NCBI GenBank assembly: GCA_965219085.1
Contig: OZ244720.1
Span: forward strand, 1,312,001 to 1,376,000
Source: Dehalococcoidia bacterium
GTDB taxonomy: Bacteria > Chloroflexota > Dehalococcoidia > UBA2979
Direction of reading: 5' to 3'
DNA: 64,000 nucleotides
How positions within the stretch are numbered: position 1 is the first letter of the stretch; every line of letters begins with the position of its first letter. The notes under the pieces were generated by a model. It ran no database searches, had not been told where the DNA came from, and saw only the letters and a list, made by a program, of their open reading frames with translations. This document shows positions 19,810 through 44,207 of the stretch, piece by piece. Both the position numbers and the translations under genes were made by a program.

Positions 19810-19884
19810 TGGAGCCGGCGGGGGGATTCGAACCCTCGACCTGCTGTTTACGAAACAGCTGCTCTACCTCTGAGCTACACCGGC
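19810..19884 (-). tRNA. tRNA-Thr(CGT)
   Basis: gccggtgtagctcagaggtagagca...tttcgtaa...ggttcgaatcc...ccggctcca cloverleaf with CCA. Confidence 0.97.
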
Positions 19885-20065
19885 CCGGCGTCCAGCGTAT
19901 AGCGTACCGCCGGGGTGGGTTTGAGGGGTAGGAAGCGTCACCGAACGTAACTAACCCCTGATCCACCGAAGAAGGGCGTGCGAGCGGCTGCGGTTGGGTG
20001 CTCCGCTGTAGCTGGGACAATGGGTTTTGCCGAATCACGTCACAGCCACAGGGAGCACCCATTCG

Positions 20066-21214
20066 ATGCTACCAACGAGCGACCCCGACCGGATAGACAT
20101 CGCCTTCGATGACGACCGCCTCGTGGACCACGCGGGCCTGCTGCTCCCGGCCACGCTCGCCCAGCATCTCGGTCTGCAAGAGCTCGCCGACAGCTGCGTC
20201 GACCTCGGTGACGCGCCGGGCCGGGCGAACGCCGGCGACAAGCTGCTGACCCTCATCGCCTCGGCGCTCGCGGGCGGCGACTGCATCGACGACGCCGATG
20301 CGTTGCGCGCCGGCGGGACGGCGAGCGTGCTGGGTTGCACGGTCAAGGCGCCGTCCACCCTGGGCACGTTCCTGCGCAGCTTCCGCTGGGGCCACGTCCG
20401 CCAGCTCGACCGCGTCAGCCGCGAGTTGCTCGCTCGCAGCTGGGCGGCCGGGGCGGGACCCGGCGACGCGCCGTTCACGATCGACCTCGACTCGACGATC
20501 TGCGAGACCTACGGCTTGGCGAAGGAGGGCGCCCGGCACCACGGCTACACGGGCGCGCGCGGCTACCACCCGCTGCTCGCGGTGGCGGCCGGGACGGGTG
20601 ACGTGCTGATGGCGCGGCTGCGCGAGGGCCGCGCCAACACTGCCCGCGGCGCCGCCCACTTCCTGCGTGAGACGGTGGCGCGGGTCCGCGCTGCCGGAGC
20701 GAGCGGGCAGCTCACGATGCGCGCCGACAGCGGCTTCTACAACCACGCGGTCGTCGCCGCCTGCCGCGCGCTGGATGTCCGCTTCTCGGTCACGATTCGC
20801 CAGCAACCGAACGTACGCACGCTGATCGAGGCGATCCCGGAAGCGGACTGGACGCCGATCCCGTACTGGCTGCCGGGCGGCGCCGCTGTCGCCGAGACGT
20901 CCTACACCCCGTTCCGGCACGCGAAGGACGCCAGCGCGGTCCGGCTCATCGTGCGGCGCGTGAGGCCGGCGCCCGGCTCACAGCTGGCGCTCTTCGCGAC
21001 GTACAGCTACCACGCCTTCATCACCGACCGCGCGGGGGAGATGATGGAGCTCGAGACCGACCATCGCCGTCACGCCGAGATCGAGAACGCGATCCGCGAC
21101 CTCAAGTACGGCGTCGGGCTCAACCATCTCCCCTCGGGCCGCTTCGCCGCGAACGCGGCATGGCTCGCGGTGCAGGTGATCGCGCACAACCTCGCCCGCT
21201 GGACGGCGCACATC
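20066..21214 (+). pseudogene. IS1380 transposase, N-terminal part
   Basis: PSTLGTFLRSF, IDLDST, GYHPL, RADSGF, HAEIENAIRDLKYG, AHNLARW; truncated by IS110. Confidence 0.9.
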
Positions 21215-22570
21215 CTGCTTCCAGGGGGCGCTGCTATCTCTGCCGCGTCCTCGATGGGACAAGTGGGTGCTCGCAGTCGCCCGTGCTCGGCATCACGTGC
21301 GTGGCTTCGTTCGCGCTCGGGTCTTCCTTCCTGATCTCCGGTCCCCGCCGGCTGAGGCGGCGCCTCCCGGCTACGCGGCCTCGCGGGCCACGGCGTGACG
21401 CAGCGGCTCGTAGACCTCCCCGCTCTTCCACAGCGCGAGCAGCAGCACCGCCAACCGCCTCGCGACGGCCACGACCGCGCGCTTCTTCGCGTTGCCCGCC
21501 CCTGTTCCCGCGTAGCGCTCACCCCAGCGACGCAGGTCGCTATCGGGTCCGAAGGGACCGAGGATGTAGTGCGCGGCCTGCACCAGCAGCCGCCGCAAGC
21601 CCGCGTCGCCGCTCTTGCCGATGCCGAGCTGCGGCGCTCGCTCCCCAGACTCCCGCTGCCGCGGCACGAGCCCGAGGTAGGCCCCCACCTCCCGGTTCTG
21701 CGGGAAGCGCCCCGGGTTCTCGATCGTCAGCACGAACGTGAGCGCGGTGATCGGCCCCACGCCGGTGACCTGGCGCAGCGCCGCGGTCTCGGGGTGGGCC
21801 TCGCACAACGCCTCGACCTCCCGCCCGGCCGCCGCGGTGCGCACGGTCAGCTCGCCAATCGCCTCCACCAGCGGCAGCAGCGCCGGGCGCAGCCCGTCGG
21901 GGATGTGGTCCGCCGTCTTGCGGTGAAAGGCCGCGGCCGTGCACGACGGCAGCGCGTCGCCGCAGGCCTTGACGGCCCCGCGCACGTGGTTGATGAGCAG
22001 CGTCCTCGATCGCACCAGCGCGTCGCGGGCGCGCACCACGGCGAGGTCGTGCTGACTCTGCTCGCTCCTGTGGCGGATCGGGGCGAGCAACTCCGGGTCG
22101 AAGCGCCCCAGCCGCGCCAGCCACGCGGCGTCGAGCCGGTCGGTCTTGCGCTGGCTGCCGGCGATCAGCGCGACCTGGCGAGGGTTGGCGACGACCACCT
22201 CATGGCCGAGGTCCGCCACGACGCGGCTCAGCCACGGCGAGCGCGGCCCCGCCTCGAGCACGACCCGCGCCGGGGAGAGGCCGGTCAGCGCTGCGCCCAG
22301 CGCCGCAGCCGCGGTGCGGACGCGCCGCTCGCGTATCACCTCCCCGCCGGCGCCGAGGGCGTGGACGTGCGTGTAACGATCGCCCACGTCGAGGCCGACG
22401 GTGATGGCGGGCCCATCCTTGCCTTCAATGCTCCGCGTCGTTGCGATATGCTGCTGCATGGCCGGTCTCCTACCTCGTCAAGGCTCTTCCGAGCCGCTCT
22501 TGGCCCATCGAGGCCGCTGTTTCAGGGGGCGAGTATCCCCCTTGAGGAGGAGGCCGGCCCTCATGCCATC
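21215..22570 (-). mobile_element. IS110/IS1111-type element nested in IS1380
   Basis: non-IS1380 sequence containing a DEDD recombinase with ~110 bp upstream and ~155 bp downstream non-coding ends; boundaries approximate. Confidence 0.8.
21371..22459 (-). CDS. IS110 family transposase/recombinase
   Basis: VGLDV, VLEAG, KTDRLDA (DEDD RuvC-like), GVGPITA, AYLGLVPRQRESG, KKRAVVAVARRL. Confidence 0.95.
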   Translation of the reverse strand: MQQHIATTRSIEGKDGPAITVGLDVGDRYTHVHALGAGGEVIRERRVRTAAAALGAALTGLSPARVVLEAGPRSPWLSRVVADLGHEVVVANPRQVALIAGSQRKTDRLDAAWLARLGRFDPELLAPIRHRSEQSQHDLAVVRARDALVRSRTLLINHVRGAVKACGDALPSCTAAAFHRKTADHIPDGLRPALLPLVEAIGELTVRTAAAGREVEALCEAHPETAALRQVTGVGPITALTFVLTIENPGRFPQNREVGAYLGLVPRQRESGERAPQLGIGKSGDAGLRRLLVQAAHYILGPFGPDSDLRRWGERYAGTGAGNAKKRAVVAVARRLAVLLLALWKSGEVYEPLRHAVAREAA

Positions 22571-33471: not shown

Positions 33472-34131
33472 CTACGCCCACTCGCGCGGGCGAGTGAAGG
33501 AGCCGCGGGCGTCCGTCAGCGTCTCCGGGAACTGGCACGCCGCGAGAAGCCTGCGACGCTTCACACTGTTTGTGATGCGCCGATCGAACGTAGCGACATC
33601 CGCGAGTTCCTTGCTCGGACGCCGTGACCGACGACTCCCGCTGCCGTTCAGGATTGGCAGCACCACACCGACGGTGAAGTCAAACCGCGCGCGAACCTGA
33701 CGAATGGGCTCAACAAGATCGGAATCGTTGGACACGACAAGCGCGGCGTCGCAGTCCTGATCGAATGCGTCCAGCAGCAGATGCGTGGCGAGGTTGACGT
33801 CGGTTCCCTTCTCCTCGGTCTTGAGCACGGGGACCCTGCCGCGTCCGTCGGCCCGGACCATCATCGTTCGTGACACCAGGAAGTGGCCGTAGTGAATCGA
33901 AAGATCGGGAAGGGTCCGGAGGGCCCGGATGTACGCCGCCTGTCGGTCCGGCGCCGTTGGATCCCCCGGCAACGGGCGAACCCTTGCCGTGAAGTAACGG
34001 ACACGGCGCACTTCGTCGCGGGGCCCTAGCAACTCGTGGGCTAAGCGCCGGATATCCAACCAGCGGTACGGCTGGCTGCGGAGCGCCCCGTAGTAGAGGT
34101 TGAAGCCATCGACATAGACATTGAAGCGCAT
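33472..34131 (-). CDS. NYN (LabA/DUF88, PIN-fold) domain nuclease
   Basis: YVDGFNLYY, RYFTA, EEKGTDVNLA, SNDSDL. Confidence 0.93.
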   Translation of the reverse strand: MRFNVYVDGFNLYYGALRSQPYRWLDIRRLAHELLGPRDEVRRVRYFTARVRPLPGDPTAPDRQAAYIRALRTLPDLSIHYGHFLVSRTMMVRADGRGRVPVLKTEEKGTDVNLATHLLLDAFDQDCDAALVVSNDSDLVEPIRQVRARFDFTVGVVLPILNGSGSRRSRRPSKELADVATFDRRITNSVKRRRLLAACQFPETLTDARGSFTRPREWA

Positions 34132-34151
34132 GCGGGAGCCCAATACCCGCA

Positions 34152-34206
34152 AGGCCCCCTGACGGGGGCCTCACTACCCAAACGGACGTACCGAGTGGGG
34201 GGGTAC
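34152..34206 (-). ncRNA. candidate structured leader/antitoxin RNA upstream of NYN
   Basis: gtacc-N9-ggtac stem with possible pseudoknot, then aggccccc-gtca-gggggcct hairpin. Confidence 0.4.
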
Positions 34207-34210
34207 AGCT

Positions 34211-34239
34211 ATATTCCAGTGTGCGCGCACCGTTGTCAA
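34211..34239 (-). promoter_or_regulatory. sigma70-like promoter
   Basis: TTGACA-17 bp-GAATAT. Confidence 0.55.
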
Positions 34240-34275: not shown

Positions 34276-36210
34276 CTACACCAACGTCACCGGCGCGCCC
34301 ACGCGCTCGGCGACGGCGACCGTCCGGTCGTGCTTCGTCGTGTCGCCGGAGCGGGCCATCGAGACCAACTCGGAGATCTTGTGGCGGCACTCGCCGTTGA
34401 TGTCCTGGTGGCCGCACACGTTGCACGGGTCGCGCTTGCAGTCGAGCGTGATCTCCTCGTTCAGCGTGCGCATCCACTCGCCGCGCAGGAACGCCTTCGT
34501 CGTCGCCGAGTCGACGTGGTCCCACGGCAGTGGCTCCCACAGGTCGCGATCGCGGTGCGCGTAGTCAGCGGGGTCGAGGTCGTGCGTCGCGAAGGCCCGC
34601 TCCCAGATCGACCAGTCGTGGTGCTCCGACCACGCGTCGAACTTCGCGCCCAGCCGCCACGCCGTCTCGATCACGTCGGCGACGCGGCGGTCGCCGCGCG
34701 ACAGCACGGCCTCGAGCAGCGACTTCTCCGGGTCCTCCCAGCTGAACTGCACGCCCGCGCGCTTGCAGCCCTCGCGCAGGATGCGGTGGCGGCGACGCAG
34801 CGTGCCGGCGTCGCACTGCGCGAGCCACTGGTACGGGGTGTGTGCCTTCGGGATGAAGTTCGAGGTCGAGACGCGCACCCGCGCGCGGCCGCCCTGGTGG
34901 CGCTTGCCGATCGCCTTCACCTCGGAGGCGATGCGGACAATCTCCTCGATGTCGAAGTCGGTCTCGGTCGGCTGGCCGACCATGAAGTACATCTTGATGC
35001 TCGTCCAGCCGTTGCCGAAGGCGTGCTCGGCGGCGTTGAGCAGGTCCTCCTCGGTGACGAGCTTGTTGATCGTGTTGCGCAGCCGCTGCGAGCCCGCCTC
35101 CGGGGCGAGCGTGAGCGTGTGCTTTTTGCCGCGCGCCACCGCGTCCGCGACCTCGACCGAGAACGAGTCGACGCGCGTCGAGGGCAGCCCGATGCGCAGA
35201 CCGCGGTCGCCGTAGGCGTCCATCAGCGCGTGCACCATCGGCACGATGTCGCGGTGGTCGGTGGTCGAAAGCGACATCAGCGAGAGCTCGTGGTAGCCGG
35301 TGTTGTCGAGCAGCTCGCCCGCAGCCGCGACGATCTCCTCGACGGAGCGTTCGCGGGTCGGGCGGTAGATCATACCGGCCTGGCAGAAGCGGCAGCCCTG
35401 CGTGCAGCCGCGCTGGATCTCGATCACCGCGCGGTCGTGGACCACCTCCATGAACGGCACGATCGGCTTCGTCAGCGGCGGCGGCAGCACCTGCACCACG
35501 CGGCGCGTGATGCGGTCCGGCGCGGCCGCGTCGACCGCCCGCGTCCCCGCGAGCGCGCCGTCGGCGTCGTAGCTCGGCTCGTACAGCGAGGGTACGTAGA
35601 CGCCGTCGAGGGCGGCGAGGGCGCGATGCAGCTCCTGCCGCGAGCCGCGGCCGGCGCGCTTCCAGTCGCGCACGAAGTCGACGAGCTCGTCGATGAGCTC
35701 CTCGCCCTCGCCGAGCGCGAAGGCGTCGAAGAACGGCGCCATCGGCTCCGGCTCGAGCGCGGCCGAGCCGCCGCCGACGACGATCGGGGCGTCGTCTGCG
35801 CGGTCGGCGCTGTGGATGGGGATGCCGCCGAGTTCGAGCAGGTTGAGGACGTTGGTGAAGCACACCTCGTACGACAGCGAGATGCCGAGCACGTCGAACT
35901 CGTGGAGCGCGTGCCGCGTCTCCAGCGAGCGCAGCGGCTCGTCGTGCTCGCGCAGCAGGTCCTCGAAGTCCGTCCACGGCGAGAAGACACGCTCGGCGAG
36001 CGCGTCCTCGCGGCGGTTGACGATGTCGTAGAGGATGCCGAGCCCGAGGTTGGACATGCCGAGGTCGTAGAGGTCCGGGTAGGCAAGCGCGACTCGCACC
36101 TCGGGCGCCCCGGGCCCGTCCCAGTCCTTGGCGATCGAGTGCAGCTCGCCACCGGCGTAGCGCGCAGGTCGCTGGACGCGGTCGATGAGCTCGTCGTAGG
36201 TGGTGGGCAT
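34276..36210 (-). CDS. radical SAM protein (TIGR03960-like)
   Basis: PARY.GGE, YPDLYDLGMSNLG, RGCTQGCRFCQAG, APEAGSQRLR, LPWDHVD. Confidence 0.93.
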   Translation of the reverse strand: MPTTYDELIDRVQRPARYAGGELHSIAKDWDGPGAPEVRVALAYPDLYDLGMSNLGLGILYDIVNRREDALAERVFSPWTDFEDLLREHDEPLRSLETRHALHEFDVLGISLSYEVCFTNVLNLLELGGIPIHSADRADDAPIVVGGGSAALEPEPMAPFFDAFALGEGEELIDELVDFVRDWKRAGRGSRQELHRALAALDGVYVPSLYEPSYDADGALAGTRAVDAAAPDRITRRVVQVLPPPLTKPIVPFMEVVHDRAVIEIQRGCTQGCRFCQAGMIYRPTRERSVEEIVAAAGELLDNTGYHELSLMSLSTTDHRDIVPMVHALMDAYGDRGLRIGLPSTRVDSFSVEVADAVARGKKHTLTLAPEAGSQRLRNTINKLVTEEDLLNAAEHAFGNGWTSIKMYFMVGQPTETDFDIEEIVRIASEVKAIGKRHQGGRARVRVSTSNFIPKAHTPYQWLAQCDAGTLRRRHRILREGCKRAGVQFSWEDPEKSLLEAVLSRGDRRVADVIETAWRLGAKFDAWSEHHDWSIWERAFATHDLDPADYAHRDRDLWEPLPWDHVDSATTKAFLRGEWMRTLNEEITLDCKRDPCNVCGHQDINGECRHKISELVSMARSGDTTKHDRTVAVAERVGAPVTLV

Positions 36211-36311
36211 GGGGCGGGCCTCGCGGGTCGCGGTGCGTTCGCGGTTAGCCGATCGAGGGTAGTCGGGGGGTGGGTAGCGGTTCAAGCGTCCCCGGGGCGC
36301 GTCGGGTGCGA

Positions 36312-37094
36312 CTACCTTCGTTCGAGCAGCTCGTCCTGGATGCCGGTGATGACCCGGGGGGAGACGGTGAACTCGAACATGTCGAAGAGCTCGATGGCCA
36401 GATCCCGTGCAAGGGCACGCGCCTCAGATGCAAGTTTGACGAGACCTATATCCCGGCGCAGCTTCACGCAGTCCACAGAGGCAGTGAAGCTCGTGGAGGG
36501 CGGACGCGTCCAGTCGGCCACCAAGCGGCGGCTACGAGCATCGGCCAGATCAATCTCCAATTCGATTCCGGCACCGTAGTCCGCAGAGGCTGTGAGCCGA
36601 CGGGAGAACTCGACGATTTCGTACAGTGTCCACACGCTGGGCTCGATAAGAAGCACACGCTCGCGGGAGGCCTGTCCCCTCTGGGGATGCACGATATCGT
36701 CCCAGCCCTCTCGGCCCGAGCTAAACCATGGCGATCTTCGTTCGGCTGGCGGCGGCGAGCGGTATGCAATGTCCTCCTGAAGGGCCCGGTAGTGGATAAA
36801 CTGCCCTGTCCGCATGAGCCGCCACACCTCGCGCCGCCAGTCCTGATGGACTAATGCCTCCCAACCGTCTTCGACAGGTGCCTTCCACTCGTTGCCCCGC
36901 CCGCTGACCGGGACATACGGATAGGGGTTGCCGCGGAGTAGCACGGCGCTCTTTGCTACAGCGTCGCCGCAGTCCGAAGGCAGCTTGAAGCGCTGGGCCG
37001 CCGACTCTGGAACGATTCGCACGCGCCAGTGCCCGATGTCGCGAATCGAGGCGAGGACCCCCTCGCGGCTCGGCGGCGCGACCGTGGTCGTCAC
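36312..37094 (-). CDS. hypothetical protein coupled to AlbA_2 gene
   Basis: 260-aa ORF; GTG overlaps upstream stop; HWRV..P, LRG..YP, EVWR...GQF. Confidence 0.75.
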   Translation of the reverse strand: MTTTVAPPSREGVLASIRDIGHWRVRIVPESAAQRFKLPSDCGDAVAKSAVLLRGNPYPYVPVSGRGNEWKAPVEDGWEALVHQDWRREVWRLMRTGQFIHYRALQEDIAYRSPPPAERRSPWFSSGREGWDDIVHPQRGQASRERVLLIEPSVWTLYEIVEFSRRLTASADYGAGIELEIDLADARSRRLVADWTRPPSTSFTASVDCVKLRRDIGLVKLASEARALARDLAIELFDMFEFTVSPRVITGIQDELLERR

Positions 37095-38910: not shown

Positions 38911-39389
38911 TGCGCATCGGCAACGGCTACGACGTGCACCGCTTCGCCGCGGGCGGGACGCTGCGCCTCGGCGGCGTCGAGATCGCCGACGCGCCCGCGC
39001 TCGACGGGCACAGCGACGGCGACACGCTGATCCACGCCGTCATCGACGCGCTGCTCGGCGCGGCCGGCGAAGGCGACATCGGCGAGCACTTCCCGCCCGG
39101 CGACCCGACCACGGCGGGCATCGACAGCCGCGAGTTGCTGACGCGCGTGGTGCGGCTGGTGTCGGCGCGCGGCTACCGCGTCGTCAACGTCGACGCCACC
39201 GTCATCGCCGAGCGCCCCCGCCTGCGCCCGCACATCGCCGCGATGCGGGAGGCGCTGGCGTGGGGGCTCGGAGTGGAGGCGTCGGCGGTGAACATCAAGG
39301 CGACGACGAACGAGCGCCTCGGCGAGATCGGCGCCGGCGAGGCGATCGCTGCGCTGGCGGTGGCGTTGCTGGATGAGGGTGGGGAGTAG
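38910..39389 (+). CDS. ispF: 2-C-methyl-D-erythritol 2,4-cyclodiphosphate synthase
   Basis: MRIG.GYDVH, GHSDGD...HA..DALLGA, KATTNE.LG. Confidence 0.97.
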   Translation: MRIGNGYDVHRFAAGGTLRLGGVEIADAPALDGHSDGDTLIHAVIDALLGAAGEGDIGEHFPPGDPTTAGIDSRELLTRVVRLVSARGYRVVNVDATVIAERPRLRPHIAAMREALAWGLGVEASAVNIKATTNERLGEIGAGEAIAALAVALLDEGGE

Positions 39390-39515
39390 GGAACCCTCGG
39401 GCGGCGCACGAGTGAGCATCGAAATGCAGCAGCGACTTCGTACGATCGCGAGGACTACGACTGCACGACATGGCGCATCCTCTCGCGCCGCCGCCCGGTT
39501 CCAGTGCGGGCGCTG

Positions 39516-39524
39516 TGTTACCAT
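39516..39524 (+). promoter_or_regulatory. extended -10 promoter element
   Basis: TG-n-TACCAT ~115 nt upstream of NYN start. Confidence 0.5.
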
Positions 39525-39529
39525 CGCGG

Positions 39530-39625
39530 CAGTCGAGCCCCCGGCGGTTCTCCCTCGGCTAGCGAGATGGTTCCCCGCCGGAAGTTCTGTCTGAGGGCCA
39601 CGGGCCAAGCCTGTGGCCCTTCTGT
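39530..39625 (+). ncRNA. candidate structured leader/antitoxin RNA upstream of NYN
   Basis: ccggcgg(39541-47)/ccgccgg(39575-81) stem with inner ctcg/cgag, then 12-bp hairpin agggccacgggc-caa-gcctgtggccct plus tctgtat. Confidence 0.45.
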
Positions 39626-39640
39626 ATACAGAGGTCGGCC

Positions 39641-40267
39641 ATGACCACAGTGCCTTCGCGCCCGGGCAATCGGATCTATTTGTTCGTCGACTTTGCGAAC
39701 CTCGAGTTGACCATGCGCGACCACGCCGGCCCCGGCTTCCGGTTCGACTGGAGCGTGTTCCCGGAGTGGTTGGTCCGCGAGGCTGCGGGGCTTGTCCAAT
39801 TGCAGTCATGGTCCTACGAGGCGGTCAGCGTCTACGTCTCCTACGACCCCTCGAATCCGAACTCGGGTCGCTTCCGCGAGTGGACCCGAACGACGCTCAA
39901 CCGGATGCCCGGTGTCCACGTCATCGAGAAAGAACGGCGGCGGCGCCTCCGCCCACCGCGGTGTCCTCACTGCCACAACGACATCCAGACATGCCCCACC
40001 TGCGGCCGAGAGCCGCGCGGCATGCAGGAGAAGGGCATCGACACGCAGATCGTGACCGACATGATCAAGCTGGCGTGGGAAGACGCATACGACGTGGCCG
40101 TCCTCGTGTCGTCCGACGCCGACTTCATTCCCGCAGTCGACTTCCTGCATGACAGGGGGCGCAAGGTGATCCAGGCGGGGTTCCGAGGCACCGGGAACGA
40201 CCTGGCGGCACAGTGCTGGGCGTCCTTCGATCTCTTCGAGCGCCGCGAGGAGTTCCAGCGCCCGTAG
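39641..40267 (+). CDS. NYN domain nuclease with internal CxxC-x5-CxxC
   Basis: FVDFANL, QEKGIDTQI..D, SSDADF; CPHC..CPTC insertion. Confidence 0.92.
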   Translation: MTTVPSRPGNRIYLFVDFANLELTMRDHAGPGFRFDWSVFPEWLVREAAGLVQLQSWSYEAVSVYVSYDPSNPNSGRFREWTRTTLNRMPGVHVIEKERRRRLRPPRCPHCHNDIQTCPTCGREPRGMQEKGIDTQIVTDMIKLAWEDAYDVAVLVSSDADFIPAVDFLHDRGRKVIQAGFRGTGNDLAAQCWASFDLFERREEFQRP

Positions 40268-40298
40268 GCGCGTCCCCGCCCTCGTGGGGCGCGGTCAG

Positions 40299-40348
40299 GG
40301 CGATGGCGGCGCTTGCCGTGGCGTTGTTGGATGAGGGTGGGGAGTAGG
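40299..40348 (+). repeat. diverged duplicate of ispF 3' end
   Basis: 45/50 identical to 39341-39390; encodes AMAALAVALLDEGGE*. Confidence 0.92.
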
Positions 40349-40349
40349 A

Positions 40350-42038
40350 ATGACCACGGAGCCGTATACGCCTGACACCGCACGATGGGACGCCTTCGTT
40401 GAGTGGGCGCGGCGCTTCTTCGAGTGGGACGAGTTCGAAGAGGCCGAGCGGAACTACAAGCTGGAACTTGGAACGGCTCTGGCGGAAGCACGGGACACCT
40501 TCATCAGTGAACGTCCTGAATGGCGTGAGTTGCTGCGTCAAGTTGTGGGTTCGCCGAACGTCCCTGTCTTTAGGATCATGATCTTTCGGTTCATCGATCT
40601 CCTGCAGACCGACACCGCAATGGTCGCCGACGCATTGCGTTACCTCTGGTCGACAGGCGACTCGGTAACGCGACGGGAAAGAGTGCGTGGATTCGTCGGG
40701 GGCCTCAGTGGCGCGCCGCAGCCCATCGGGACGGCGGAGAGCCTTGCGGCGTTCCTGCTGTTGGCGCGGGACCCCACCTCCAATCCGTTCTACATGTGGA
40801 GCCCGTTCCGAACTGCGTACCAGATGACCGGTTACCCGCTCGTTAGTGTCCGGGCGCCACCGGCAGACAAGTACGGGCATGCTGTCGACTTCCTCGATGA
40901 GTTTATTCGTCAGGCGGCGAACCGAGACCTCGCGCTCCGCGACCGGCTCGATGCGCAGTCTCTCGTGTGGTGTGTCACGCAGTCGACGCCCGAGGAGTGG
41001 GATCCGCAGACTTTGGTGAAACTTGAAGGATACCGCGAGTCGCGCGGTGATCCCCCGACCAATCCTCCGGACGGACCGGAAACGCCCTGCGGCGATACGA
41101 CGACGGCGCCTGACTGGCCCGGGTTGGCCGCAAGGCTGCTCTGGGAGACCGGCCACCTGGAGGAGATCGTCGCGGACCTGGAAGACAAGCGGCAGATGAT
41201 CTTCTACGGGCCGCCGGGCACCGGGAAGACCTTCGTCGCGAAGGCGATAGCAGAGGAGTATGCGAGGGTGGGCGGCGGCTTCGAGATCGTGCAGTTCCAT
41301 CCCTCGTACTCCTACGAGGACTTCGTCGAGGGCTTCCGGCCCACCCTCGAAGGCGGACGAGCGGGCTTCGCGCTCAGGCAGGGCCCGCTGAAGCGGATTG
41401 CGGCCGCCGCGGCAGCGAATCCTGACGCGACCTATGTGCTCGTGATCGACGAACTCAACCGGGGCAACGTCGCCAAGGTGTTCGGCGAGCTGTACTTCCT
41501 GCTTGAGTACCGCCGAGAGGATATCCAGCTCCAGTACAGCGAGGGCGAGCGATTCCGGCTGCCTGAGAATCTGCTCTTCATCTGCACGATGAACACCGCC
41601 GACCGGTCGATCGCGCTTGTGGACGCTGCGCTCCGGCGGCGCTTCTGGTTCCACGGCTTCTTCCCCGACGAGGCACCGATCGAGGGGCTGCTTCGGCGCT
41701 GGCTCACGGACAACCAGCCTGGCGCAGAGTGGGTCGCCGACCTCGTCGACCGCGCCAACGAGCACCTCAACGATCGCGATGCGGCGATCGGCCCCAGCTA
41801 CTTCATGGACGACAAGGCCGAACTGAATGACGCGCGTGTAAGCCGCATTTGGCACCGCGCCGTCTGGCCATACATCGAGGAACAGTGCTACGGCGAGGAC
41901 GAGAAACTCGCGTCGCTGAGATACGAGAGCCTGCTCACCGAAGTCAACAGCGGTGCCCCAGCGCCTGCCGACGCTCCAACCGACGCCGAGCGCGAATCCG
42001 GCGGGGAAGCGGACGCGGATGCCGACGACCCGTCTTGA
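40350..42038 (+). CDS. mcrB: McrB-like AAA+ GTPase (type IV restriction)
   Basis: GPPGTGKT, QFHPSYSYEDFVEG, IDELNRG, MNTADRS, DAALRRRF. Confidence 0.95.
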   Translation: MTTEPYTPDTARWDAFVEWARRFFEWDEFEEAERNYKLELGTALAEARDTFISERPEWRELLRQVVGSPNVPVFRIMIFRFIDLLQTDTAMVADALRYLWSTGDSVTRRERVRGFVGGLSGAPQPIGTAESLAAFLLLARDPTSNPFYMWSPFRTAYQMTGYPLVSVRAPPADKYGHAVDFLDEFIRQAANRDLALRDRLDAQSLVWCVTQSTPEEWDPQTLVKLEGYRESRGDPPTNPPDGPETPCGDTTTAPDWPGLAARLLWETGHLEEIVADLEDKRQMIFYGPPGTGKTFVAKAIAEEYARVGGGFEIVQFHPSYSYEDFVEGFRPTLEGGRAGFALRQGPLKRIAAAAAANPDATYVLVIDELNRGNVAKVFGELYFLLEYRREDIQLQYSEGERFRLPENLLFICTMNTADRSIALVDAALRRRFWFHGFFPDEAPIEGLLRRWLTDNQPGAEWVADLVDRANEHLNDRDAAIGPSYFMDDKAELNDARVSRIWHRAVWPYIEEQCYGEDEKLASLRYESLLTEVNSGAPAPADAPTDAERESGGEADADADDPS

Positions 42039-43251
42039 ACTCCAGGAATGGAGGGAGCGTAGCGTCGAACTTTCGCTCGACGCAGCGCAGCTCGACGCCC
42101 TGCGGGCGGCGCGCATCGATGTGACGCCACACGGCGGCAACTGCTACGCGCTGCGGCCTTCCTCGCACATTGGCATCGTGACGGCTGGCGATCTCGCGGT
42201 CGTGGTACGTCCCAAGATCCCGATCGAGAGCGTGATGTTCGTCCTCGCGTACGCGCTCGGGATCTGGGACTGGCGTCAGGAAGACACCACCCTCGCTGTC
42301 GACACGGACGTCCTCGAAGCGATCCTGCCGGCGTTCGCTCATCACACCGAGCGGGCTATCCGCCGGGGACTGCGACAGGACTACCGCGTCGAGGAGGAGG
42401 CGCTCCACGCCGTGCGCGGCCGCATCGCCTTCGCCGAGCAGATTCGTCGGCGTCCCGGTATCCCGCTGCCAGTCGAGGTCCGCTACGATGACTTCACCGA
42501 GGACATCGAGGAGAACCGGCTGCTGCACACTGCCATCCACCTCCTGGGCCGCATCCCCATTCGCTCTCCCAGGTGGAGACAGGAGTTGCGGGGACTGCGC
42601 CCCAGATTCGCCACGGTCAGCGTGGGCTCGTACCGTCGAGGTGGAGTACCGGAGGTCCGGTACCACCGTCTCAATGAGCACTACCGCCCCGCGGTCGAAC
42701 TGGCACGTCTCATCATCGATTCATCGAGCTTCGAACTGCGTCACGGTGAGGTGACTGCGTCGTCGTTCTTGATCGACATGAACGACGTGTTCGAGCGGTT
42801 CCTGCGTTCGGCCCTCCGGGACACCCTTGGCCTGCCAGCGGGGGCGTGGCCTGACCTTGAGAGCCACAGGCGACTCACGCTCGACGAGGGTGGACGCATC
42901 GGGTTGATCCCGGACCTGATGTGGCGGCACCCCGTCGAGGGGACGCCGACATTCGTCGGGGATGCGAAGTACAAGCGGATCGAGCCAGACGGGTTCAAGC
43001 ATGGCGACGTCTACCAGATGCTTGCCTACTGCATCGCATCCGACCTGCCATCGGGCCTGCTTGTGTATGCCGCTGAGGAGCACGAGCCCCACCGGTACGT
43101 AATGAAGCACGTCGGCAAGACTATTGAAGTCGCGGCACTCGACCTGAGCGGTGATCCGGAGGCGATGCTGGAAGAGGTAGAGCGGATCGCGCGCATTGTT
43201 CATGAACACCGCGCTCTCGGGGCCGAGTCCATACGCGCGCTGTCCGCGTAA
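42019..43251 (+). CDS. mcrC: McrC-like nuclease subunit
   Basis: RPKI, D..ENRLL, IDMN.VFE.F, PD...DAKYK, DVYQMLAY. Confidence 0.93.
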   Translation: MPTTRLELQEWRERSVELSLDAAQLDALRAARIDVTPHGGNCYALRPSSHIGIVTAGDLAVVVRPKIPIESVMFVLAYALGIWDWRQEDTTLAVDTDVLEAILPAFAHHTERAIRRGLRQDYRVEEEALHAVRGRIAFAEQIRRRPGIPLPVEVRYDDFTEDIEENRLLHTAIHLLGRIPIRSPRWRQELRGLRPRFATVSVGSYRRGGVPEVRYHRLNEHYRPAVELARLIIDSSSFELRHGEVTASSFLIDMNDVFERFLRSALRDTLGLPAGAWPDLESHRRLTLDEGGRIGLIPDLMWRHPVEGTPTFVGDAKYKRIEPDGFKHGDVYQMLAYCIASDLPSGLLVYAAEEHEPHRYVMKHVGKTIEVAALDLSGDPEAMLEEVERIARIVHEHRALGAESIRALSA

Positions 43252-44048: not shown

Positions 44049-44072
44049 GCCGCGGCGTGGCCGGAACGCCGC

Positions 44073-44187
44073 GCTGACGCCCGGTATGCGGGGATACCCC
44101 GCTGACGCCCGGTATGCGGGGATACCCCGCTGACGCCCGGTATGCGGGGATACCCCGCTGTATTTCCGGGGATGCGGGGATGCCCCG
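44073..44187. repeat. 28-bp tandem repeat x3 plus degenerate fourth unit
   Basis: gctgacgcccggtatgcggggatacccc at 44073, 44101 and 44129; palindromic core gcgggg-ata-ccccgc. Confidence 0.95.
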
Positions 44188-44207
44188 TGGGGGGCACACT
44201 GGATCCC

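Follow-up and report, generated by a model that had tools for sequence, protein, structure and literature searches.

A conserved two-hairpin RNA precedes zinc-ribbon NYN nuclease genes in a layout that resembles type III toxin-antitoxin loci

The window analyzed here, a 64,000-nt stretch of contig OZ244720.1 from a Dehalococcoidia bacterium, carries a gene for a NYN nuclease that we call NYN2, in the gene order ybjQ, ispD, ispF (ending at 39389), NYN2 (39641-40267), a McrB-like gene (40350-42038) and a McrC-like gene (41953-43251), with cysE, cysS, three tRNA genes and tuf farther downstream. The 251-nt gap from the ispF stop to the NYN2 ATG holds an extended −10 element and a predicted small RNA composed of a stem (P1) enclosing a hairpin (P2), followed by a second hairpin (P3) that ends 20 nt before the ATG (Table 1). 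Together with the nuclease gene these parts form the NYN2 unit (39516-40267 of the window, ~750 bp), and the extended −10, P1, inner P2, 12-bp P3, tail and ATG spacing described in the original prediction for this unit all lie where they had been placed. Comparison of related loci solidly establishes the RNA as a new conserved motif, by sequence and predicted structure.

Table 1. Features of the NYN2 unit and of the second NYN gene in the window
Feature	Position	Strand	Details
NYN1 module	33475..34239	minus	TTGACA 34239-34234, hairpin 34170-34153, NYN1 34131-33475
ispF 3′ end (last codons and stop), copy A of 61-nt direct repeat	39330..39390	+	YgbB/IspF match
Long imperfect inverted repeat, arms 39390-39412 / 39480-39502	39390..39502	+	5′ domain of minimum-energy fold
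Extended −10 TGnTACCAT, TG 39516-17, hexamer TACCAT 39519-24	39516..39524	+	
RNA motif matched by covariance model R1	39529..39627	+	23.8 bits, full model 1-99
Predicted small RNA	~39531 to ~39627	+	~95 nt
P1, CCGGCGG 39541-47 pairing with CCGCCGG 39575-81	39541..39581	+	fold and covariation
P2 hairpin inside P1	39552-57 with 39563-70	+	core CTCG 39554-57 / CGAG 39563-66
P3, 12-bp GC-rich hairpin, arms 39594-39605 / 39609-39620	39594..39620	+	loop CAA 39606-08
U-rich tail after P3	39620-27	+	TTCTGTAT
Shine-Dalgarno AGAGG 39630-34, then NYN2 ATG 39641	39630..39643	+	N-terminus aligns with relatives
NYN2, 208-aa NYN/LabA-like nuclease with CxxC-x5-CxxC zinc-ribbon insert	39641..40267	+	
ispF-tail copy B (reads ...ALLDEGGE, stop)	40288..40348	+	directly before McrB-like ATG 40350

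The protein had been predicted to be a NYN nuclease with a CxxC-x5-CxxC insert, and both points hold: NYN2 matches Pfam PF01936 (NYN) at 54.7 bits (cutoff 24.2, E = 2e-14) and carries the sequence CPHC-x5-CPTC. NYN is the sole Pfam family that it matches, which places it outside the ToxN, CptN and TenpN toxin families. Among 264 candidates scored, at least 152 are relatives of NYN2 at E ≤ 1e-3. In a 46-member alignment, D17, D134, D159 and D161 together with C111, C118 and C121 are invariant, and the fourth cysteine of the zinc ribbon is conserved in more than 90% of members. A structure predicted with AlphaFold 2 has a predicted local distance difference test score of 93.2, and a Foldseek search of the Protein Data Bank (PDB) with this model returned the LabA-like protein 2qip as the top match (E = 2.3e-9) together with the MARF1 NYN domains 5yaa and 6fdl; a sequence search of the PDB with the NYN2 family profile returned nothing at E ≤ 0.01. 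By likeness to MARF1 as described in the main text of Payne et al. (bioRxiv 10.1101/2024.01.29.577857), we provisionally assign the catalytic residues of NYN2. Among the defense models of PADLOC, NYN2 matches the NYN model and also HEC-09 (PDLC04163, E = 5.7e-12), the latter over profile positions 84-146 of 203 only and thus short of full length.

A species-representative genome scan for NYN2 relatives gave 371 stretches, the best 80 of which were fetched with flanks and are cited here by handles such as L007; these loci were chosen by NYN protein match, and the RNA linkage counts below hold for gene-bearing loci. The closest are from Chloroflexota (at most 61% identity), and the set further includes Myxococcota, Acidobacteriota, Planctomycetota, Alphaproteobacteria, Bipolaricaulota, WOR-3, Thermodesulfovibrionia and others. 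In their upstream regions we observed a GC-rich hairpin before nearly every start, with a conserved base, a variable top and a T-rich tail. In the window itself, the interval 39528-39643 has a fold energy of −57.8 kcal/mol (z −2.93) and the wider interval 39390-39660 one of −134.1 kcal/mol (z −4.39), with 0 of 200 shuffles as good in either case. Blastn of the window intergenic region matched the leaders of L001, L003 (92.5% over 40 nt, next to a protein only 52% identical) and L007 (74% over 113 nt, from window position 39511), and homology to L007 is limited to 39511-40260, that is to promoter, RNA and gene. Of the 81 sources (80 loci and the window), 59 leaders could be aligned once we set aside 20 in which the hairpin finder had taken another hairpin and 2 in which it found none. 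Their consensus consists of a −10 box, 6 nt, CATTAnAGCCC, P1 around a variable P2, nATTAnAnCCCC, P3 and TATTyTTT, and RNAalifold predicted P1 with heavy covariation, including one pair that is CG in 28 leaders and UA in 28.

From this alignment we built a covariance model, R1, with 7 P1 pairs and 10 P3 pairs. As MAFFT had split subgroups, the seed was restricted to 34 of the 59 leaders sharing one register, which were realigned, a selection biased toward fit. The model contains other genomes only, with the window copy left out, and the search space was 656 kb (the 80 loci and the whole window). At E ≤ 1, 77 of the 81 sources have a full-length match that is on the strand of the gene and ends 0-120 nt before its called start. 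The four exceptions are L042, where the start was miscalled, and L023, L046 and L037, where the motif lies on the opposite strand (E = 5.5e-8 for L023 and 5.5e-10 for L046; for L037, from Hoeflea, 14.9 bits and a local E of 0.0027 with filters off). The motif thus stands beside a NYN2-family gene in all 80 fetched genome loci, as it does in 5 of 5 small plasmids with a NYN2-type gene, where it is co-oriented in L081, L082 and L083 (weakly scored in the last, at 12.7 bits and a local E of 0.008) and divergent in L084 and L085. Elsewhere in the 656 kb, full-length matches are confined to a second copy in L061 (E = 5e-8) and a weak one in L049 (E = 0.23). The E value of the window copy is 0.0075 in 656 kb and, with filters off, 9.2e-5 in 8 kb; it and the copies of L001, L003 and L007 represent a divergent variant of the RNA whose linker and P3 base depart from the consensus. 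Scans against Rfam 15 returned tRNAs only when the window and 18 loci were searched at the gathering threshold, and noise when L009 440-640 and window 39380-39660 were searched by E value (best E 0.15, at 15 bits against a gathering score of 39).

The predicted pairing is maintained by compensatory change. Across the 81 R1 matches with E ≤ 0.02, standard pairs occupy 96.4% of 1329 cells, versus 40-44% with slid partners, and both sides have changed in 16 of the 17 pairs (327 cells), which divide into all 7 pairs of P1 and 9 of the 10 modelled pairs of P3; the covariation score was reached by 0 of 500 shuffles. RNAalifold likewise predicts P1 and P3 from the 81-copy alignment, and the raw sequences show the hairpins individually. 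For the NYN2 subfamily, the covariation analysis that the original prediction had proposed as a check gives a clear result: relatives from many phyla and on plasmids keep the predicted layout, from promoter through P1/P2 and P3 to the gene, and show compensatory changes. The conserved bases form the 5′ flanks of two simple hairpins, with P2 variable. Specifically, the sequence AUUAnAnCCC precedes both P1 and P3, and the 10-nt flanks agree at 6.5 of 10 positions in register versus 2.4-3.9 when shifted, as if the RNA consisted of two related units. No multi-stem junction or conserved loop pocket was seen in this RNA.

The RNA appears to be a transcription unit of its own. By sequence match, a TANNNT begins 8 to 16 nt before the motif in 51 of 81 copies, and exactly at −10 in 30 of 81; 43 of the 51 copies with a placed TANNNT also have a TTG-type −35 at the right spacing, and in the window TGnTACCAT falls in the slot occupied by the −10 of the relatives and would supply the promoter expected of a toxin-antitoxin locus of type III. 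At the other end, the 9 nt after P3 contain a mean of 5.4 T versus 1.6 expected by composition, with at least 5 T in 63 of 81 copies (5 in the window), and P3 with its U-rich tail looks like an intrinsic terminator. A terminator scan lists the P3 top and tail in the window, although it reported 9 sites in 11.5 kb versus 3.5 expected and its single matches are weak evidence. Of 81 NYN2-type genes, 54 have a strong uninterrupted hairpin (dG ≤ −12) no more than 75 nt from the start, versus 5 of 80 neighboring genes, the latter being controls of at least 200 aa with crudely called starts. The distance from P3 to the start has a median of 25 nt (interquartile range 20-42), which leaves no space for a second promoter, so that co-oriented NYN2 genes would have to be transcribed by read-through. 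Together, the comparisons described so far show a conserved predicted structure, a promoter of its own, a terminator-like end and a strict linkage to the gene of a NYN nuclease that looks catalytically intact.

Such an arrangement could also belong to a purely cis-acting 5′ leader, in which P3 as an attenuator keeps the level of a harmful ribonuclease (RNase) low and in which P1/P2 and the conserved, single-stranded AUUAnAnCCC stretches are a site bound or cut by NYN2 (autoregulation) or by another factor that sets read-through or mRNA stability. The RNA lies in the 5′ untranslated region (UTR) of 81 of 86 modules with P3 close to the start, P3 is terminator-like, and NYN transcription in co-oriented loci passes only through the element, all of which a cis leader would explain. 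Conserved structured 5′ UTRs are familiar before RNase genes, as RNase E and RNase III autoregulate via their own leaders (the rne 5′ UTR and the rnc leader), but those act in cis and are not known to have a promoter-plus-terminator unit of their own, whereas some copies of the NYN2 RNA are transcribed away from the gene and one is an orphan. The five divergent copies, which belong to three lineages (L023, L046, L037, L084 and L085), keep both sequence and structure, and the three that entered the promoter analysis (L023, L046 and L085) keep a −35 and −10. In the two acidobacterial loci L023 and L046 a TTGAC(A/C)-17/18-TA...T promoter precedes the divergent RNA, whose end is U-rich, and the P2 differences between the two copies compensate each other; the L037 copy resembles both. 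The orphan, in L061, argues in the same direction. Shine-Dalgarno sequestration, the sole cis mechanism examined, is unsupported: the C-run before P3 was considered as a pairing partner for the Shine-Dalgarno sequence and rejected, as cognate pairs reach −3.63 kcal/mol versus −3.52 for permuted ones, 131 of 500 permutations were as good, and shuffled partners also matched the cognate ones. On balance we regard a purely cis-acting leader, the main rival to our own reading, as somewhat unlikely.

The unusual copies have further features. L061 (3817-5777) holds two motif copies, the first before a NYN gene with an aberrant C-terminus, possibly through a frameshift, and the second, which differs from the first in a compensatory manner, 1.1 kb downstream, beyond an unrelated open reading frame (ORF) of 309 aa. 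In the gammaproteobacterial plasmids L085 (2402-2534) and L084 (636-740), where the RNA diverges from the NYN gene, P1 is compact and P2 is absent. In L085 the RNA promoter and the NYN start codon overlap on opposite strands, with the −10 of the RNA within ~20 nt upstream of the start. This overlap in L084/L085 recalls type I toxin-antitoxin and cis-antisense systems, since a longer NYN 5′ UTR would be complementary to the RNA. In 81 of 86 modules, however, the RNA has the same sense as the gene, so that base-pairing with the mRNA cannot be the general mechanism, and the protein, at 208 aa, is an RNase where type I systems have a small membrane peptide.

The combination of structured leader and terminator would also suit a small-molecule riboswitch acting on NYN2 via P3. 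The simple two-hairpin build, devoid of a multi-stem junction or conserved pocket, the existence of divergent and orphan copies, and our failure to identify a conserved antiterminator make this very improbable.

The genes around NYN2 relatives show no common theme. In a Pfam scan of the neighbors at the 80 loci, which covered the 120 of 152 called ORFs that are at least 120 aa long, we found mutually unrelated genes such as aroA, secA, gap, tpiA, recJ, thyX and dnaJ and no conserved protein partner; the downstream ORF lies on the opposite strand in 35 of 76 called cases. In L030, L057, L059 and L068 genes for a DUF1156 methylase, an SNF2 helicase and an Eco57I methylase flank the NYN2 relative; one further locus adjoins a phage portal gene and another an IS1595 transposase, and in the window the module adjoins McrBC. 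This variety bears on the simplest explanation of the window hairpin, namely that it is a mere terminator of ispDF read-through and that the promoter and stems arose by chance. The hairpin does lie downstream of ispF and does appear in the terminator scan. Nevertheless, the same RNA is found whatever the upstream gene (aroA, secA, gap, recJ, plasmid mob genes and others), the homology to L007 begins at the promoter and not at ispF, and a separate long inverted repeat directly follows ispF. As the RNA stays beside its gene even on the other strand and the layout is conserved, the comparative data exclude the outcome that the original prediction had named as its refutation (a mere ispDF terminator that lacks both a promoter and a conserved structure), and we give the terminator explanation almost no credence.

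A second NYN gene in the window, NYN1, belongs to another subfamily. It matches PADLOC HEC-09 at positions 3-202 of 203 (E = 3.8e-44), and its leader contains 81 nt of structured sequence (z −3.28) with a hairpin 21 nt before the ATG at 34131, close to the 20 nt of NYN2, as predicted. Also as predicted, the two RNAs are unrelated in sequence: R1 gave no full-length match on the NYN1 leader with filters off. NYN1-type leaders were considered as members of the R1 RNA class and rejected, the best score being an insignificant 9.2 bits (E = 0.71, filters off); three insignificant matches fall exactly on a NYN1-type leader, which is suggestive only. Given that R1 has no significant match to these leaders, what the two subfamilies have in common is therefore architecture, not sequence. 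NYN1-type genes are present in 445 plasmid records, 15 of which were fetched, and a strong hairpin lies just before the start in 13 of 16 NYN1-type leaders (15 plasmid leaders and that of the window) versus 5 of 80 control genes, often as an evident terminator with an A-run, stem and T-run. The clearest case is L094 (590-800 of a 4.6-kb E. coli plasmid), in which a promoter is followed by 2.6-3.3 tandem repeats (29-33 nt long, with a hairpin and an A-rich, C-ending spacer in each) and a strong terminator 7 nt before the NYN ATG. This leader is common to 16 further enterobacterial plasmids (17 records in all), and its layout corresponds to the type III locus criteria given in Blower et al. 2012 (PMC3401426). 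Tandem Repeats Finder found no repeats in the leaders of L090 or L088.

Several other observations concern NYN1-type loci. The deposited coding-sequence annotation of the L094 nuclease runs over the repeats. The leaders of L095 (540-800), L097 and L099 (640-800), from enterobacterial and Pseudomonas plasmids, share the 11-nt sequence GCGATTAAGTT, present twice in L095, and have a terminator directly before the NYN1-type start. In L091 (286-801) and L093 (442-804) there is no leader hairpin; the NYN1-type gene is instead coupled in translation to a small ORF upstream, and these loci may represent a protein-partner variant.

The setting of both genes in the window bears on their origin. The window has a GC content of 70%, that of ispF and cysE is 72-74%, and that of NYN2 and McrBC is 64-65%; in addition, the ispF tail recurs as a direct repeat of 61 nt (85% identity between 39330-39390 and 40288-40348) on both sides of the 897-bp NYN2 cassette, and the stop of copy B lies 5 nt from the McrB-like ATG. 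The sequence of this interval suggests that two accessory modules were gained in succession between ispF and cysE, and the lower GC content and the duplicated ispF tail lend this much support to the earlier claim that the two NYN genes were separately acquired. No integrase gene was seen near the NYN2 cassette. Directly 3′ of the ispF stop, the inverted repeat has 23-nt arms ~67 nt apart; it has no further copy in the window or the fetched loci, is not common to the L007 cassette, and may be the ispDF terminator, an insulator or an insertion scar outside the conserved cassette. Close to NYN1, between a minus-strand radical-SAM gene (34276-36285) and ybjQ, two overlapping minus-strand ORFs of low GC content, one with no family match (36312-37094) and one of Schlafen/AlbA_2 type (PF04326, 37091-37717), may form a further acquired module, and neither has a match in PADLOC. 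Elsewhere in the window, the cysE-cysS interval carries four tandem copies with a period of 28-30 nt and a short GC palindrome in each (44060-44190), and a tRNA-Thr gene is followed by transposases of DDE_Tnp_1 type (20012-21334) and IS110 type (21371-22477) within 19810-22477.

The known systems that the NYN2 unit most resembles are the type III toxin-antitoxin loci (toxIN, cptIN and tenpIN), which, by the criteria that Blower et al. 2012 (PMC3401426) set out for such loci, consist of a constitutive promoter, a noncoding RNA, a short palindromic terminator and an endoribonuclease gene, with the terminator setting the ratio of RNA to toxin. The NYN2 module has the same order of promoter, RNA, terminator and RNase, with a short palindromic terminator (P3 and tail) directly before the gene, and like them it is solo, mobile, found on plasmids and present in defense islands; in the NYN1 branch the likeness extends to the tandem repeats of L094. 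It differs in that its nuclease has a NYN/PIN-like fold and not that of ToxN, CptN or TenpN, in that its RNA is one ~95-nt molecule of two degenerate units and not an array of identical 31-62-nt repeats, and in that some of its RNAs are divergent from the gene; neutralization is proposed here by analogy. In short, the module is type III-like in layout and lacks two of the features that define that class, the tandem repeats and the toxin family.

We hold, at about even confidence, that the NYN2 unit is a self-contained module of a cognate small RNA and a NYN RNase that works in the manner of type III systems. A sigma-70-type promoter would drive a structured RNA of ~95 nt made of two AUUAnAnCCC-plus-hairpin units, P1/P2 the first and P3 the second. 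P3 would double as an intrinsic terminator; transcription would reach NYN2 through read-through alone, so that the RNA should outnumber the nuclease mRNA. Most likely it would bind NYN2 and keep the nuclease inactive, as the antitoxin RNA of type III toxin-antitoxin or abortive-infection modules does, until transcription shut-off, phage attack or plasmid loss removes the RNA and so frees the RNase. Binding, inhibition, toxicity and a role in defense are what we infer from the layout.

Linkage is silent on the sign of the interaction, and the same evidence would fit an RNA that serves NYN2 as positive cofactor, guide or processed substrate in a ribonucleoprotein enzyme. A guide should have a variable spacer-like segment, though, and here the variable parts are stems kept by compensation; moreover, a terminator before the gene yields an excess of RNA, as it does in antitoxin systems in the account of Blower et al. 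(PMC3401426). A role as cofactor, guide or substrate therefore strikes us as distinctly unlikely.

A number of observations weigh against an RNA-neutralized RNase. Tandem Repeats Finder (minimum score 30) detected no array in 39390-39640 or in the NYN1 leader, and the two AUUAnAnCCC-plus-hairpin units are short and degenerate. The window copy is itself divergent and scores low, and the choice of 34 of 59 leaders for their fit, together with pair counts from alignments fitted to the model structure, leans toward the model. The 81 of 86 co-oriented modules with the RNA in the 5′ UTR also fit a purely cis-acting leader, and given a NYN promoter farther upstream, the divergent RNAs of L084 and L085 may be antisense to the NYN 5′ UTR. 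Many NYN2 homologues are located among housekeeping genes, and a tblastn search of a phage collection found no NYN2 homologue. Finally, the HEC-09 representative protected against none of the phages tried in the work reported in the main text of Payne et al. (bioRxiv 10.1101/2024.01.29.577857). Searches by blastn with one RNA copy gave no match in the phage collection, and a plasmid search for extra RNA copies gave self matches only, BLAST being poorly suited to this motif.

HEC-09 is another of the closest known systems. In the same text of Payne et al., HEC-09 is a candidate that consists of one NYN protein encoded inside Hma systems. NYN1 matches this single-gene candidate of Hma/DISARM-like systems over its full length, NYN2 homologues are also met with a DUF1156 methylase on one side and an SNF2 helicase on the other, and the nearest solved folds for both are MARF1 NYN domains. 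The differences are that NYN2 matches part of the profile and carries a zinc-ribbon insert, and that HEC-09 is described there as protein only, the terms 'ncRNA' and 'non-coding' having 0 occurrences in that main text. Tentatively, and with somewhat less than even confidence, we propose that NYN/LabA-like nucleases with a dedicated small RNA could constitute a fourth type III-style toxin-antitoxin or defense family, unrelated to the known three, in which a two-unit RNA neutralizes the zinc-ribbon NYN and a hairpin-repeat array does so in the HEC-09 branch, and which has spread horizontally over at least 10 phyla, small plasmids and Hma/DISARM-type islands. As part of this proposal, the RNA may be an overlooked component of HEC-09, which failed when tested protein-only. 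In the literature searched we found no pairing of 'type III toxin-antitoxin' with 'NYN' and no NYN gene with a dedicated RNA, and the main text of Weinberg et al. 2017 contains no NYN, LabA, DUF88 or nuclease term.

The NYN2 RNA is a widespread structured RNA, absent from Rfam 15 and from the literature searched, with an evident candidate protein partner. If it neutralizes the nuclease, type III systems would no longer be confined to three ToxN-like families and would take in NYN/PIN-like nucleases, which are very common on plasmids, and HEC-09, so far a single protein, could be viewed as an RNA-protein pair.

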